A DNA stretch of 46,179 nucleotides from a virus (Duplodnaviria > Caudoviricetes). The stretch covers positions 1-46,179 of IMG/VR virus record IMGVR_UViG_3300030376_001764; one strand, written 5' to 3'. The notes beneath the pieces are model-generated. The model searched no databases. It was given only the letters and a program-made list of their open reading frames with translations, and had not been told where the DNA came from. Each line of letters starts with the position of its first letter. Within the stretch, counting starts at the first letter, position 1. The translations under genes and the position numbers were made by a program. This document shows positions 2,998-30,206 of the stretch, piece by piece.

Positions 2998-3186
2998 ATG
3001 TATTGTAGATGCGGTAAATCTGTGCACCCAGTGCGAATAGACTTAGGTTACAAAACTTGTGTCGAGTGTTCAACCACTCAAACTTATAGCTATGTACCTA
3101 TCATCGAGCACAAGACAGGCAATACTATTCAAATCGTCAGCCAAGAAGTATCAGCGAGTGTGCACAGAGCTTGGCGGCGTAAGTAG
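2998..3186 (+). CDS. C4 zinc-finger protein, DksA/TraR-finger-like
   Basis: CRCGKSVHPVRIDLGYKTCVEC resembles the CxxCG..I...RL......CxxC finger. Confidence 0.55.
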   Translation: MYCRCGKSVHPVRIDLGYKTCVECSTTQTYSYVPIIEHKTGNTIQIVSQEVSASVHRAWRRK

Positions 3187-3374
3187 TTGGAAGGTGCTGC
3201 TGTTAGCGGCAGACTACATAGCGCGAGGAACTACCTGAGTTGGTAGGGTTGTGAAGCGCAAGGCGGCGGCATACTGGTCACGTTAGCGGAAATGATTATG
3301 ATTGGAAGTACGCGAAACAGAAAGAGCGGATAAATGACAATACTAGTTAACTACCAGTCCGTAACTGCTGCCTT
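3183..3374 (+). ncRNA. GC-rich structured non-coding RNA cluster of unknown family
   Basis: No ORF. Stems: GTAGT/ACTAC with CTGCTG/CGGCAG; GCGC/GCGC with CTACC/GGTAG; AAGGCGGCGG/CTGCTGCCTT with ACTGGT/ACCAGT and GTTAGC/GTTAAC. G-U pairs favour the + strand. Confidence 0.6.
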
Positions 3375-3376
3375 AT

Positions 3377-3462
3377 GGGCGTGAAATGGTTAGGGTATGA
3401 TTAAAGGCGAACTTGATTCGGCTCGATGATTACTAACGCAGGTTCGATTCCTGCCACGTCCA
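3377..3462 (+). ncRNA. tRNA-like element 2, resembling the tmRNA tRNA-like domain (G3-U70, A73)
   Basis: GGGCGTG...GCAGG-TTCGATT-CCTGC-CACGTCC-A; ATGGTTA after the 5' stem as in the other two elements; no canonical anticodon arm. Confidence 0.7.
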
Positions 3463-3467
3463 CTGTA

Positions 3468-3502
3468 TTACAAACAAAATTCATTATCTAATGGATAATA
3501 TA
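3468..3502 (+). promoter_or_regulatory. Early promoter motif copy 7
   Basis: TTACAAACAAAA-N12-TGGATAATATA; ATG at 3510. Confidence 0.8.
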
Positions 3503-5030: not shown

Positions 5031-5070
5031 GGACGTAATGGTTAATACAAGTTCGATTCTTGTACGTCCA
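5031..5070 (+). ncRNA. tRNA-like minihelix 3
   Basis: GGACGT-AATGGTTAAT-ACAAG-TTCGATT-CTTGT-ACGTCC-A: same linker and loop as element 1, different but complementary stems. Confidence 0.75.
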
Positions 5071-8528: not shown

Positions 8529-8680
8529 AATATCCAGATGCAGATAAACACTTTTGGGCTAGTATGACAAAGAGTGTTATAAGAGTAGGAGGCTATTGTC
8601 TCATTTTTATTAACATTGAAGCAGCGGCTATGTTATTGATCGCAAGCGAAGTAATAGGAGTAGTAGAAGAATTAGTATGA
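8525..8680 (+). CDS. Small membrane protein (51 aa, not in track)
   Basis: MKYPDADKHFWASMTKSVIRVGGYCLIFINIEAAAMLLIASEVIGVVEELV; ATGA overlaps at both ends. Confidence 0.65.
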   Translation: MKYPDADKHFWASMTKSVIRVGGYCLIFINIEAAAMLLIASEVIGVVEELV

Positions 8681-9432
8681 AAAAGTACAACATACAAAAT
8701 TATATAAGGTATAAAGAAGATCTTAAAAAGTCTATGCCTGAAGTAAAATTTTACGATAAATATACTAGAAAAGAACTTATTGTAAAATTTCTACCTCTTG
8801 TAGAAAATTTAGCACGTAAGTTTTCAACAACTCAACAAGCATCAGGCGTTTTAAGTATAAATGACTTAATACAAATTGGAGCTGAGGGTTTAGTTAAAGC
8901 TGTTGATAAATTAACATGGGAAAAACTAAATGAATCTGAAGATATTGAAAAAACTTTAAAATCATTTTTTAGCAAACGTGTTAAAGGTGCTATACGTAGA
9001 CGTATTGACATGCACAGAGGTGACATACGTATTCCAGAGCATAAAATAAATGAAATACGTAAAAATCCTAAAGATAAAAAGATGGTTGAAATGTTTTTTA
9101 ACTCTATGTTTTTATCTATAGATGCTCAACCAACCAACGACGAAGGAGAGCAAATGATACATCAAATAGCAGATAAGTCAGAGCCATATAACATTGCTTT
9201 GCTAAACAGTTATTTGAAAAGCTTATTGTTAAAACACTTAAGTACAAAAGAATATGAGGTGTTACGATTAAGCTACGGACTTGACTGCGATAAGCATACG
9301 GCTAAAGAAATCGCAGCTAAATTAAAGATAGATGGCGTTAGTAATTACGTGCGTATAAGTGAGCTAAAAAAGCAAGCTGTACAAAAATTAATTGATAACG
9401 TCGATCACTCGCAAGTGATTGACTATCTGTAA
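8677..9432 (+). CDS. Phage sigma-70-family RNA polymerase sigma factor
   Basis: Region 2 LIVKFLPLVENLARKF...DLIQIGAEGLVKAVDK...KGAIRR..IRIP; region 4 LSTKEYEVLRLSYGL...TAKEIA...RISELKKQAVQKL. Confidence 0.9.
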   Translation: MKKYNIQNYIRYKEDLKKSMPEVKFYDKYTRKELIVKFLPLVENLARKFSTTQQASGVLSINDLIQIGAEGLVKAVDKLTWEKLNESEDIEKTLKSFFSKRVKGAIRRRIDMHRGDIRIPEHKINEIRKNPKDKKMVEMFFNSMFLSIDAQPTNDEGEQMIHQIADKSEPYNIALLNSYLKSLLLKHLSTKEYEVLRLSYGLDCDKHTAKEIAAKLKIDGVSNYVRISELKKQAVQKLIDNVDHSQVIDYL

Positions 9433-26900: not shown

Positions 26901-28529
26901 TTGTATTCTTTTGTGCTCTTGTGGTGTCTTTATAGCGTTACTAGCTTTAAGATAATCACCAGTCAATATCACACTACCAGAACCAAAAGCGCCTTTTAAA
27001 CCAGACTCAAAAGCTTCAGGCGTAAAAAAATCACCAGTTGCTTTTATAACAGAATCTCTATAGTTCATACCTTGAGAAGCGTACTGGTTAAATTGCTGAG
27101 TACTATATTGGAGCATTTCTTGGAATCCGTTTTTACCCATTACCATTGCCGTAGCCGCGTATTTTTGCTGCGCAGCCATTGGCAATCTGTTAAAGTATTT
27201 AGTAATTACTTCAAACCTAGTCCACTCTGATCCTAATTCTAAAGCTGTAGAAACTATAGCTGGTGTCATTGTAAAATTACCAGATTCTACAAGCTCACCT
27301 GGTGTTAAACCTTGTTTTTCTGCCTGTATATCTATGCTTTCATTAAGAGCGTTAGCAAATAAATTTATAAATAATCCTGGAGGTTGTTGAGCTCCTGTTG
27401 TAGCAACAGCCATTGCGCCATCAATAACCCCAGCTAATCCTCCTAAAGCATATTGAAAAACCCCATCTTTTTCTTTTAACCTATCAAACCTTTGTGTTGG
27501 TAAATAGTAAGAATCTTTTTTATTTAAATTCAATCTAGCTTGTTCTAGCTTTTTTAAGTTTTTCTTTTGTAACTCTGGCGAAACATTTTGAGTTCCAAGA
27601 AAATGCCAAAGATATTCAAACTGATCGTCAATGTTTGCAATAGTTGTTAAGCTATTACTCATCGTGTTGTATAAAGATCTAGTAAAATCTATATCTATTT
27701 TATTGTCTGCGTAAAGTCTATTGTATTGTTCTCTTCTATCTTGCTGACCTTCACTTAGTTTTTGTATAGCATCAAGACCTTCTGATGCAGTACCTAGTGT
27801 AGCAACGTTGGCTAGGTTTCTAGTTATATCATTAGCAAAAAAATTGACTATATCATTAGATATATTTTTTTCAAAGCTATTATATTTTTCTGATAATTCT
27901 TCTTTAGTTAGTTTTTTACCAATAACAGTTACCTCGTCTAGAGGTACTCCTTCAGCTCTCGTGCCTACTAGTTCACCATCTACAATAAATGGTACAGGTG
28001 CTAAGTAAGCTGCACCATCTTTAACGTAACTTCTAGACTCAGGAACAGGGACGTCAGGATTAAAAGCTTCGTCATCAAACTCTAGTAAATCATCAGCCGA
28101 AGAAATGCCTTCCTGTAATATTTGATTACGACGTTTTGTTAGTTCGTTGTATTGAAAAATACGTTTAGGTGAATCTAATGGAGTTATTTTACCATCAGTT
28201 CCTGCAATACTAGCTATACGATTATCTATTTCTCTAACGTCATTTACTCCACCTAGATCTATTACAATATCTTCTTGTGCCCAGCTAGGGTTTTTAGATG
28301 GATCAAATGGATCTGGTGATTCCGAAGAAGTATCTACCGAGTCTGATTCCGTAGTCTCGGGTGCTTGCCCGGTTGTCGGTGTTACAGTTGCACCCTTGTC
28401 CGCAACACCGTTTGTCTTTCCCTCTTCTTCTTCTACAACTTCTACAGCGTCAGGAAAAGTATCTTTAAACTCTTTTACTTTATCTTCTGGAAGATCGTAA
28501 ATAGTTTCACCAACTTTAAATGTAAACAT
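20967..28529 (-). CDS. Giant internal virion/ejection protein (2520 aa) with zincin HExxH, sigma-70 region-2-like and HAD phosphatase domains
   Basis: Last and largest of three ORFs after the tail/GNAT genes; AAHEFLH (aa about 739), YDPDSGVPLAAY (aa about 914-990), WDFDDTL...LTAR...K...FADD (aa about 1686 onward). Confidence 0.8.
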   Translation of the reverse strand: MFTFKVGETIYDLPEDKVKEFKDTFPDAVEVVEEEEGKTNGVADKGATVTPTTGQAPETTESDSVDTSSESPDPFDPSKNPSWAQEDIVIDLGGVNDVREIDNRIASIAGTDGKITPLDSPKRIFQYNELTKRRNQILQEGISSADDLLEFDDEAFNPDVPVPESRSYVKDGAAYLAPVPFIVDGELVGTRAEGVPLDEVTVIGKKLTKEELSEKYNSFEKNISNDIVNFFANDITRNLANVATLGTASEGLDAIQKLSEGQQDRREQYNRLYADNKIDIDFTRSLYNTMSNSLTTIANIDDQFEYLWHFLGTQNVSPELQKKNLKKLEQARLNLNKKDSYYLPTQRFDRLKEKDGVFQYALGGLAGVIDGAMAVATTGAQQPPGLFINLFANALNESIDIQAEKQGLTPGELVESGNFTMTPAIVSTALELGSEWTRFEVITKYFNRLPMAAQQKYAATAMVMGKNGFQEMLQYSTQQFNQYASQGMNYRDSVIKATGDFFTPEAFESGLKGAFGSGSVILTGDYLKASNAIKTPQEHKRIQGLLSELHQLDKAKYSKNITAAQLKAINTAQVEIREKLTAAVDANDDLMGTLSDQQIEIVNQNYDILTSVNAEIDATKAADNLTDDQKASIIDGLETAQEQAAQEIFNIRNTAEEFYGKLAKVKKETEDVDQLDFEVFDNTSEVENFLIKQDNPNVDVKESAGQQGFFIPGVDGKPNTIVINKEVALNEQAVNVAAHEFLHYILYETLKNNPVASINLGNALLDELNKIDVDQIKDSKFKQRMELYKDDKIEVQMEEALTLFSDALATGDIKFDEGIYTKIGDKVRRALQKNFGVKVKFNKGRDVYNFIKDYNNSLEKGGITTAQQAVAEEGAEGELIPQAEQQADEQIIKESRSEEASQRVQEIYDQQGVAGAFEIIEQFKPITSKIVERRSEAPGFDRQLLTDEIETGQRGIIDLISEYDPDSGVPLAAYINKFLPARAIEASNRVLGEEFTEDVTEARGVIAEETDVEVTEKPKGPRKPTETTIFSDTVLSNLGVENKAEAEKQISDATNKAFEGQDITRFGQTKNVPVAVAEIYGKMFGVNPETIYDKKRNYSKKDAEGLTRIKQYLIDNAASDFARLPKTKDDFGKATFIPNNVMNALYTDGELTGTLKNYLDLIRQIAVKPIYRDQTSQTIRGFLNTSIRNRMVEDLIPIKPERARAGAKFSKAKAKPKKGINAEIETIVGGRLPFTPEGNKQFKDFLTVELPKYLGRDVTKIIKPGDVAGAGNSAVGSRKTSGAIGRGFRFIGNRQRTQRFIPETDQALEANEVMDLEFVRKEIDQAVQLLSLEQVKDVAAATSSQTRASMGKNEARKDSIKRGRRLILEALFKAVQADPKNIIPVRELLYNQNANTSFGRKFATVTSIETNLKPKENTWEEHVYQFGNWAKRTLQAFKTGDPNIVNNWLQWADNNYYQEVTGKPTQGVVDGVYEGWKAKAQEHPYLKQALDKAFKTGDFSKVPSSDIRKYNEFFTLNPNIRTRDGITDAKRYNVEVPASLQNNKAVVNEQGKLIYQQLIGYITPQQAKQQLQEFSKLAPSILKASKSNNKKLPPGVRLEDPGTFDQFGMVDVVTKQMFPAIADLDIVKAGRLTAYEALDPDQQFEVMAQVPGSPVQEAIAVMSISDQAIRFSRNADAPNKGISVWDFDDTLATTKSNVLYTMPDGTEGVLNAEQFAKQGEDLLDQGAEFDFSEFEKVTKGAKGPMFEKAVARNRKFGNNNVFILTARTQAAAEPIHQFLKAIGLDIPLGNIVGLGNSTPEAKARWVVGKAAEGYNDFYFADDAYKNVKAVQDALNVLDVKSKVRQAYVKHSKSEALDKGFNDILEQTTGIASEKEYKKVKAEVAGASLGRVFRGIPYSAQDFVGLLYETLSKGKLGDSQMAWYKKHLIDPYARAVNDIDNARLSVMQDYRALKKQLGFVPKNLRKKIPGEPYSREQAVRVYIWNKLGYDVPGISKQDLKDLSEHVADNADLQVFADQVIAIQKGEYTKPREGWPAGTITTDIQESINTGVRAKYLTQWQNNVDVIFSEKNMNKLQAAYGKKYRVAIENMLDRMKTGRNRRFSDDSLTGRFTDWLQGSIGAIMFFNSRSALLQTISSVNFLNFTDNNPLAAAKAFANQKQYWSDFATLINSDFLKARRSGLRMNVNEADIADMAKKGGPRAVISKLLQLGFAPTQIADSFAIASGGATFYRNRIKSLMKQGMSQSEAETQAFDDFRENAEESQQSARPDRISMQQAGPLGRLILAFQNTPSQYARIIDKSVRDLKNNRGDRKTNISKIVYYSTVQNLLFNALQQALFAFAFDDEEPEDEEKKDKYISIANGMADSLLRGTGVAGGVMSVTKNAIMRIVKESQKDNPNYEKVGADLQRIAPPISSKLSKINQAARSFKWDKDEMINGGWGLDNPAYLAVGNVVSATTNIPIDRGVKKINNLMKASDSELETWERLALLGGWQDWEIGIDEEKKKPQKRKVKKRKVKKRKVKK

Positions 28530-28541
28530 ATTTAATTAATT

Positions 28542-30206
28542 TTATTTTCTAACGTATGGAAAAAATTGATTAGCGGCAGAACTAACAACTTTATTAGCAT
28601 CGGTATCTTTTATACCCATGGCTTGCATTAGTATTTTCTTTTTCTGAGCTGGATCCATATAAGGATATATTTCAAGTCCGCCTACTTCTATGCTTTCTAG
28701 CTCATCGTCTGTACCGTATTCATCAAGACCTTCTATACCTAGATTTCTAGCTATTCTAAGAGTACTTTGTAAGTCTGTAAGATCAGCAACATCTATTCTT
28801 TCGTCTAAGTCTTTTAGTGTTTTTTGATAATCTGCTCTTCTTATTTCACCTTCAGTAGGTTTTTTATCGTCCTCAGGTCTTTGTTTTCTACGGCGCTCTT
28901 CTTTTGTTTTAGTATAGTAAATTTTACTTTCACCAGCAATTAAAGGATTTTGTTCTTCGTACTCTGGAAACTCTTCTTTGTATCTAGCAACGTCCTGTTC
29001 TGTAGCTGTTCTAGTTTCAACCTGTTTGTTACCAAACATTCTTATTAAGTCGTTATGCTCAAGACTGTCTTTTATAAATTGTATTTGGCTAGTTTCACCT
29101 TTGCCTATCCAATCTTCTTTAGCAAAAGATTTACCTAAATTATATTTTATATACTTAAGCTGTTCGTCTAAAGGCATTTGCAATAAACCTTTAGCTTTAC
29201 TATCTAACATAGACTTGTACGTAATGTCTTCCGTAAGCATTTCTACGTTAAAGTGTCTTTCTGTGGTAACTATTTCGTCATCACCTTGAGGGTTTATTGA
29301 TATTATAGAATTAGAATTAAAGCCTTTACCTGTTGGCGTGTCTTGATCGTTAAGAAAACCAGATGTACGCAGCGCATCGTTGGTGTCAATTAATTCAGGT
29401 AATTTAGTAATTAAACCATTGCCATTAGCCCATTTGTCTACATCTCTAGACCAAATAAAATTAGCATCTGAATCTTCTAAATCATAAGCTTCTTTTAAAG
29501 ATGCCCATACATCACTATTTGTGTCCATCTGAACAGACACATTCATAATATTTTTATAGCTACCATCATCTTGTCTAACCCTTTCTAGCTTTTTATGAAT
29601 GCCACTAGACGCGTTTCTGTTTAACAATGATTCAGCTACAACTAAGTTTTGATACTCTTCTTTACCCTCACCAAGTATATCAAACCCATTAGTGCCATCA
29701 AAGTTACCTATATCAAAAGCCTTTTGCTCTTTTAAAGGTGTTAACCCGCTAATTATTTTACCTGTTTGATTTAATGTGGTTGTCTGATATGTCTGTGCAT
29801 TGTTAACTATATTAGAATAAGCTATACGCTCAGCGCTTGTTAGTTCAGGATTAAGAGCTAGTTCTGTTTGAGCGTCAATAGCACCTATACTATACTCAAC
29901 CCCATCGTGTATATATGGCTCACCGGTTTCTAACAAACCTATAGCAGTTTGTTTAAATTGCTGCAAAAAGTCTGGATCCGTTATACTAGAAGATGTTTCG
30001 TTTAAGTCTTTAAGATGTTGTAGCGTAGCTTTGTTTTTATAAAGCTGTTTAGCTTGCCTTTGTTTTTCTACTAAAGCTATTTGTTTTTGTTTAGCCTCTT
30101 GAACTTCTTTAAATATATTTGAAAAAGCATCTGAGCTTTCTTGAAAAGATTTAATATACATGTCTGCAGAGCGATCTAATATTACTTGTGGATTTCTATA
30201 ACTCAT
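28542..30206 (-). CDS. Putative internal virion protein (554 aa)
   Basis: Position between the pilot-like and giant proteins; helical N-terminus. Confidence 0.55.
   Translation of the reverse strand: MSYRNPQVILDRSADMYIKSFQESSDAFSNIFKEVQEAKQKQIALVEKQRQAKQLYKNKATLQHLKDLNETSSSITDPDFLQQFKQTAIGLLETGEPYIHDGVEYSIGAIDAQTELALNPELTSAERIAYSNIVNNAQTYQTTTLNQTGKIISGLTPLKEQKAFDIGNFDGTNGFDILGEGKEEYQNLVVAESLLNRNASSGIHKKLERVRQDDGSYKNIMNVSVQMDTNSDVWASLKEAYDLEDSDANFIWSRDVDKWANGNGLITKLPELIDTNDALRTSGFLNDQDTPTGKGFNSNSIISINPQGDDEIVTTERHFNVEMLTEDITYKSMLDSKAKGLLQMPLDEQLKYIKYNLGKSFAKEDWIGKGETSQIQFIKDSLEHNDLIRMFGNKQVETRTATEQDVARYKEEFPEYEEQNPLIAGESKIYYTKTKEERRRKQRPEDDKKPTEGEIRRADYQKTLKDLDERIDVADLTDLQSTLRIARNLGIEGLDEYGTDDELESIEVGGLEIYPYMDPAQKKKILMQAMGIKDTDANKVVSSAANQFFPYVRK

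Follow-up and report, generated by a model that had tools for sequence, protein, structure and literature searches.

Can a bacteriophage put to use a tmRNA that has lost its message? The question is raised by an 86-nt RNA gene at positions 3377-3462 (+ strand) of a viral DNA of 46,179 nt (the whole stretch that was analysed, here called the window), in which a preliminary description had seen a tmRNA-like RNA with alanine identity and no message domain. The window is a virus record, 72% complete, that carries portal, virion, primase/helicase, ligase, sigma-factor and ribonucleotide-reductase genes. Its host is probably a flavobacterium, because the portal gene matched 87 GenBank phage records of which 86 are named after Flavobacterium, Cellulophaga, Tenacibaculum or Maribacter hosts. 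We found no SmpB gene in the 72%-complete record, so that the SmpB partner of such an RNA would have to be that of the host.

The RNA gene lies amid small early-type ORFs on the + strand. Upstream of it, an ORF of 62 aa with four cysteines (2998-3186, +), which belongs to no Pfam or PHROG family, serves as a marker of the RNA locus, in 171 or more viral stretches; its nearest named atlas cluster is zf-dskA_traR at 0.88 (DksA/TraR-type zinc fingers), a lead only. Between this ORF and the RNA gene, directly upstream of the latter, is a gene-free array of about three folded modules (3187-3374, +), whose content varies among relatives. A bipartite promoter-like repeat stands ahead of early ORFs in six + strand copies (227-258, 468-499, 860-891, 2270-2301, 2945-2976 and 3470-3501), all within the first 3.5 kb of the window (1-3.5 kb). 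Judged by position only, the copy at 2945-2976, ahead of the 62-aa ORF, would start a unit of ORF, modules and RNA, and since the next copy (3470-3501) begins 8 nt after the RNA gene, the RNA would end this early unit. The phage-encoded sigma factor (8677-9432) might read these repeats. Scans of the window for sigma-70 promoters and terminators gave counts at chance level only. RNA-library contigs of relatives span parts of the locus, assembled contigs showing neither ends nor level; in run X11, the RNA cover was nearly confined to 2998-3286 and excluded the 3377-3462 element (3 of 30 bins, depth 113-169, the runs having been chosen with this stretch), and such cover does not count as evidence of expression.

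Much of the first reading of the RNA stands. The acceptor stem (5′ strand 3377-3383 paired with 3455-3461) has the G1-C72, G2-C71 and G3-U70 pairs that had been reported, followed by the discriminator A73 (A3462, closing the 3′ strand segment 3455-3462). The T arm (3438-3454; 5 bp with a TTCGATT loop) is perfect, as described, with 100% of cells paired and two-sided changes at 3 of its 5 pairs, and the CGAA/TTCG hairpin is present within the insert. It is also correct that CCA is unencoded, and that 86 nt (through A73) leaves no space for a tag frame. The absent CCA is no defect, because only 2 of 19 parsed bacterial tmRNA genes (from Bacteroidetes bins and relatives) encode it; in the family described below, 5 of 133 parsed elements do so.

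Is this fold real? The stretch 3377-3462 folds at -29.5 kcal/mol (z -2.76), and none of 200 shuffles was equally stable. In a genome-mode search, the Rfam tmRNA model (RF00023) matched the whole element at 34.1 bits (E 8.7e-14), which falls below the Rfam gathering cut-off of 47 bits; the tRNA model (RF00005) gives it 14.9 bits. On the tmRNA model, each of the 15 homologues that were tested falls within 32.4-38.4 bits. Five members of the family in three bacterial bins reach 35-39 bits, with other short matches there (presumably tRNAs) at 28.4 bits or less. ARAGORN and Rfam, which the preliminary description had named as a check, called nothing in the window at default thresholds, and an earlier E-value scan with Rfam models matched the T arm only. 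Comparison of 15 flanked loci with Rfam found no family beyond tmRNA and tRNA, save a weak T-arm match, and BLAST of the element against GenBank phages likewise gave T-arm matches only.

It is in the middle helix that the first reading has to be changed. This had been drawn as a GTTAG/CTAAC helix, which single-sequence MFE favours by 3.9 kcal/mol over an alternative that begins after TTAG. Across 26 homologues, two-sided changes occur at none of the five GTTAG/CTAAC pairs: two are invariant and the other three are broken in 7, 13 and 9 of the 26. The helix after TTAG (GGTA/TACT in the window) has two-sided changes at all five of its pairs. Helix 2 thus probably begins after TTAG in this copy too, and the D-loop analogue, which lacks a D stem as had been stated, extends over 10 nt (3384-3393, with its GG) and not over the AAATGG first assigned to it; it is shorter than the 12-nt host-type loop and lacks the host TTGAC end. 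Helix 2 and a 41-nt cargo module occupy 3394-3434, and a 3-nt AAC connector (3435-3437; AAC in 50 of 51 elements, GAC in host-type tmRNAs) precedes the T arm. The resulting order of acceptor, 10-nt stemless loop, helix 2, 3-nt connector and T arm is that of the tRNA-like domain (TLD) of tmRNA, as laid out in the accessible part of PMC3968760. The whole-model tmRNA match, the missing D stem and 109 distinct inserts in the family all support a TLD architecture without message domain, as first proposed, and at the level of sequence the element is a real, conserved tmRNA reduced to its TLD. The preliminary description had missed the helix-2 register, the exchange of inserts, the array of modules upstream and a pair of shorter sisters.

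How common is this RNA, and is its alanine identity kept? Of 57 viral loci that matched a 5′-end pattern, 36 have a complete element (the remainder being chance matches without T arm), and a 3′ pattern gave an estimated ~770 metagenome stretches, of which 117 were examined. The pooled set, which is biased by the search patterns, holds 131 distinct elements with G3-U70, from 52 to 178 nt long (median 90). An acceptor-free scan gave 50 matches, with paired acceptors in 37 (34 in register, 3 after a one-base shift); the 13 that were unpaired there are tRNAs or chance. The least biased count comes from a gene-anchored set, gathered through the upstream 62-aa ORF and blind to RNA sequence: among the best 80 of 171 related loci, 72 have at least 500 nt downstream, and a TLD-type element lies within 800 nt in 53 of these 72. 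The parser found no element in the other 19, one of which (L483) has one by the model built here. Conservation of G3-U70 in related phages, which had been set beforehand as a test, was borne out by 52 of the 53 gene-anchored elements (the exception, L549, has A3-U70) and by all 37 paired acceptors of the acceptor-free scan. It is also constant in the 26 homologues (26/26), while acceptor pairs besides 1-3 vary on both sides, pair 4-69 with a two-sided change in 6 of 26.

We found no ordinary tRNA with an anticodon arm among the homologues; their inserts are unrelated, so that no anticodon is conserved among the 109 distinct versions, which also hold no tag frame, and the canonical tRNA features (a D stem, a conserved 7-nt anticodon loop) are absent from element and family alike. 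An attachment-site remnant is unlikely, as the acceptor has its two strands, each of them conserved, and a search of four Bacteroidetes genomes, a small sample, did not find the pattern. The six pattern matches in genome bins have flanks that look like phage contigs. Elements L237-L240 lie on short contigs in an Aliivibrio-labelled bin and are probably misbinned phage contigs, giving no host evidence. Upstream of the match in L241 is a tandem pair of TLD-type elements, the first of which encodes CCA and lacks the AAC connector, and another viral contig (L180) has a TLD-only element of 65-70 nt with an encoded CCA and a different loop.

The gene-anchored set also bears on where the element came from. 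At 12 of its loci this place is taken by a host-like TLD of 77-79 nt, whose loop ends in TTGAC and whose connector is GGAA. The seven host-like TLDs that were scored all clear the tmRNA cut-off of Rfam, at 53.1-65.7 bits. In several host-like TLDs, 10-15 nt match the 3′ side of helix 2 in Bacteroidetes-type tmRNA; by itself the match is weak (E 0.06-0.2), but it lies at the homologous place. Intermediates (L493, L483 and L410) pair the acceptor of the window element with a TTGAC-like loop. Cultured relatives have tmRNAs as well: among five GenBank relatives searched, Cellulophaga phage phi38:1 has a full-length one (87.6 bits) and Maribacter phage Panino an annotated one. Synteny and sequence (host-like forms, helix-2 remnant, intermediates) thus support descent from tmRNA rather than tRNA, and because the host-like TLDs keep a piece of helix 2 at the same locus, we infer that the element arose from a Bacteroidetes tmRNA by loss of the message domain and then drifted. 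A hidden tag frame, or a full-length tmRNA with a window-type TLD, was found in none of the 131 elements of 52-178 nt; 2 of the 109 inserts have a frame ending AA-stop, both through one base change in a GNRA hairpin.

The drift touches the loop that SmpB contacts. In all 19 bacterial tmRNAs that were parsed (of 23), the loop ends in TTGAC or TCGAC and the connector is GAC, whereas the window subtype has a TTAG loop end and an AAC connector; a canonical TTGAC-like loop end is kept in only 10 of the 131 pooled elements. In the E. coli structure, according to the accessible text of PMC8363625, SmpB touches A15, U17, C18, G19 and A334, and binding is lost with G19C. Counting the final G of TTAG as G19 preserves the key base, and leaves the loop a base too short after GG and the connector a base too long; with the 3-nt connector as register, an A stands in place of G19. 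Because loop end and connector have drifted, with G19 kept or lost by register, binding of SmpB by the window subtype is uncertain and cannot be assumed.

The insert has a history of its own. Among relatives, the gene-free stretch from the ORF to the TLD consists of folded shells that are reordered and nested in one another, and out of 51 inserts, 20 have a match in the flanking sequence of other loci. The first upstream module of the window is the TLD insert in L401 and L435; the 41-nt module of the window sits within the TLD in L121, L182, L185 and L433. In 11 of the 80 gene-anchored loci this module occurs outside the TLD, frequently enclosed by another shell, and its own inner hairpins differ among loci. 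The insert thus belongs to a pool of folded modules, which related phages put upstream, nest in one another or slot into the TLD. The cargo is not required for the TLD, since versions of 52-60 nt exist with almost no insert (a tiny hairpin only). A second tRNA-like shell of about 80-100 nt, with a variable insert of its own and no G3-U70, recurs upstream of the TLD (in L134, L139, L143, L495, L496, L508, L510 and others).

By eye, the window insert resembles the 23S peptidyl-transferase loop. Three tests against the rRNA of one Bacteroidetes genome gave no support for rRNA mimicry by the modules: their k-mer likeness showed no excess (p 0.23-0.65); 2 of 47 inserts reached p<=0.1; and in the third test the window insert gave p 0.026 or 0.22 depending on the choice of boundary, while p<=0.05 (uncorrected) was reached by 6 of 30 strand pairs, most of them at places that bear no relation to one another.

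The window carries two minimal sisters of the element, 40-41 nt long and anticodon-less, with the TGGTTA linker and T arm of the 3377-3462 element. Neither has a middle helix or G3-U70. The first (1241-1281, +) consists of an acceptor stem, a ATGGTTAAT linker and a T arm; in the second (5031-5070, +) the acceptor stem has 6 bp and A3-U70. Both are members of a widespread phage family (~190 viral stretches for one exact pattern) with varied acceptors, in which 1 of 63 well-paired members has G3-U70. Minimal elements stand right behind GOLLD in 3 of 20 loci scanned, and some lie in tRNA arrays. In a close relative (L239), the sister corresponding to that at 1241 carries an insert plus AAC, so that the long and short forms have one slot in common.

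What might a TLD with cargo do for the phage? The reading that we favour, and to which we would give about an even chance, is that of an alanine-charged decoy which ties up the SmpB/EF-Tu rescue route of the host and so dampens the tagging of phage proteins, a swappable module having replaced the message domain. The TLD probably doubles as a stable carrier of this cargo. Early transcription would begin at the 2945-2976 repeat; the transcript would be trimmed by the RNase P and 3′ nucleases of the host and CCA would be added, as expected from tmRNA biology; charging by AlaRS would then be followed by binding of EF-Tu and SmpB. With no resume codon, the RNA could compete with host tmRNA or enter stalled ribosomes as a dead end, and competition for SmpB would lead to less tagging, as the precedent of mycobacteriophage DS6A suggests. 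The DS6A gene is little beyond a TLD, and tmRNA is strongly inhibited by a molecule of this sort whether or not it can be charged, perhaps through titration of SmpB, according to the available portion of PMC4131195; that of PMC11915505 states that the DS6A form inhibits endogenous tmRNA in E. coli. The early guess that the RNA could titrate SmpB or EF-Tu, or alter ribosome rescue, matches a published case.

Several findings speak against a decoy. The window subtype lacks the host-type loop end and connector and scores under the Rfam cut-off; minimal sisters with the same linker lack alanine identity, the orthologous L549 has A3-U70, and 19 of the 72 loci yielded no element to the parser. Moreover, the cited inhibition is independent of charging, so that plain titration leaves the strict G3-U70 unexplained. 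Since DS6A-type inhibition works without charging and G3-U70 nonetheless persists in this family, the RNA probably depends on EF-Tu or the ribosome as well, and this keeps alive both a scaffold and a rescue without tagging.

The first of these, possible if doubtful, supposes that the subtype has left the SmpB pathway and become an alanylated tRNA-like scaffold and cutting signal, at which RNase P and 3′ nucleases would release the upstream modules while EF-Tu would shield the cargo on helix 2. Known tRNA-like processing signals, such as the t-elements of plant mitochondria and mascRNA, end a transcription unit with an acceptor and T arm; they are the best fit for the two minimal sisters, and lack the alanine identity and tmRNA ancestry that the window element has kept. 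A scaffold would agree with the place of the TLD at the end of the module array at nearly every locus, with the pool that inserts share with upstream modules, with the drift of the D-loop analogue to the tRNA-like TGGTTA common to the minimal sisters, with the gain of an insert by the 1241 sister at the same slot in L239, and with the minimal elements directly behind GOLLD. However, the host-like TLDs at the same place have a fixed short remnant and no cargo, versions with a tiny hairpin exist, the purine-rich loop end and geometry of the 3-nt connector are kept, and the assembled contigs, which do not show ends, gave no sign of cut sites. A bolder idea, which we think rather unlikely, is that the TLD is a natural display scaffold, charged with alanine and still on the route to EF-Tu and stalled ribosomes, whose message-domain slot is filled by recombination from nestable modules that serve as host-factor decoys or ligands. 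If this were true, the locus would be a mix-and-match RNA cassette for counter-defence or takeover in marine flavobacterial phages. The exchangeable insert resembles the engineered tRNA-scaffold trick.

The second, rescue without a tag, we consider improbable. Here Ala-TLD and SmpB would enter stalled ribosomes, take the nascent chain and help recycling, adding no degradation tag, a route that has been suggested for CDS-less organellar tmRNAs and that would account for the strict conservation of G3-U70. We know of no release route without a stop codon, which counts against it, and a bulky, variable cargo reaching 133 nt would have to get through the ribosome. Selection maintains the CDS-less tmRNAs of mitochondria and plastids according to the accessible text of PMC11915505, which would favour such a rescue, but the sole tested phage-type TLD inhibited tmRNA (PMC4131195 and PMC11915505, in the parts available).

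Still less probable is a decoy for host defence enzymes that attack the acceptor end or elbow of tRNA, with the modules as decoys for other RNA-binding defences. The early-region position, the fast turnover and shuffling of modules and the several tRNA-like elements per genome would suit it, but most such decoys need no fixed alanine identity, and the modules have no excess of rRNA likeness in the one Bacteroidetes genome compared. A degenerate ordinary tRNA or chance fold is very improbable indeed, for although ARAGORN at -ps80 calls a tRNA-Gln(ttg) at 3377-3463 (one of 11 mostly noise calls), an ordinary tRNA-Gln is ruled out by the low score on the tRNA model, the missing D stem, the position of TTG in a 5-nt loop of the cargo module and the unrelated inserts of homologues.

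Returning to the TLD as a decoy of tmRNA origin, the kind of RNA is already known, from DS6A and from the CDS-less organellar tmRNAs; what is new is how large the family is, that the loop has drifted, that host-like forms occupy the same locus, and that there is a slot for cargo. The TLD-only tmRNA of DS6A (tmID 11587; JN698994, about 28478-28560) is, like the window element, phage-borne and about 80 nt long, with G3-U70, A73, a stemless D loop, helix 2 on a short insert, a T arm, no tag frame and no encoded CCA, and it scores 35.7 bits on the model built here. It keeps a TCGAC loop end, in contrast to the TTAG and AAC of the window subtype, which belongs to a large family in flavobacterial-type phages, where the insert is exchangeable and can reach 133 nt and a module array adjoins the TLD. 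With Bacteroidetes tmRNA (RF00023, including the phi38:1 copy) the element shares the acceptor identity, T arm, stemless D loop and 3-nt connector, but it lacks the message domain, pseudoknots, resume codon and tag, and its loop is 2 nt shorter. CDS-less organellar tmRNAs (mitochondrial forms and Mallomonadaceae plastid genes of about 65 bp) are, in the accessible text of PMC11915505, likewise TLDs without tag frame and under selection; they differ in being the sole tmRNA of their compartment, the mitochondrial ones with a targeted SmpB, whereas the phage form enters a cell that owns a tmRNA. In the literature outside subscription journals and supplements, we found no description of this TLD family or its modules.

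Phage TLD-only tmRNA is represented in the literature that we found by DS6A as a single case; in the marine phage group described here it is a regular feature, at 53 of 72 loci, in a family that is invisible to ARAGORN and Rfam at default thresholds. The presence of host-like and drifted forms at one locus provides a natural series on the loop bases that SmpB needs, and the same series bears on whether trans-translation is blocked, exploited or bypassed by phages. As for the exchangeable insert, it points to a pool of small RNA modules in phages.

Two other phage tmRNAs are unusual. That of phi38:1 (L468, KC821614.1, 26803-27164, -) is unannotated, and its tag frame looks unusually long and unlike a host-type tag. 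The annotated tmRNA of Panino (L469, PP540027.1, about 27557-27889) looks circularly permuted, with the T arm and the 3′ strand of the acceptor ahead of the acceptor 5′ strand and the tag region.
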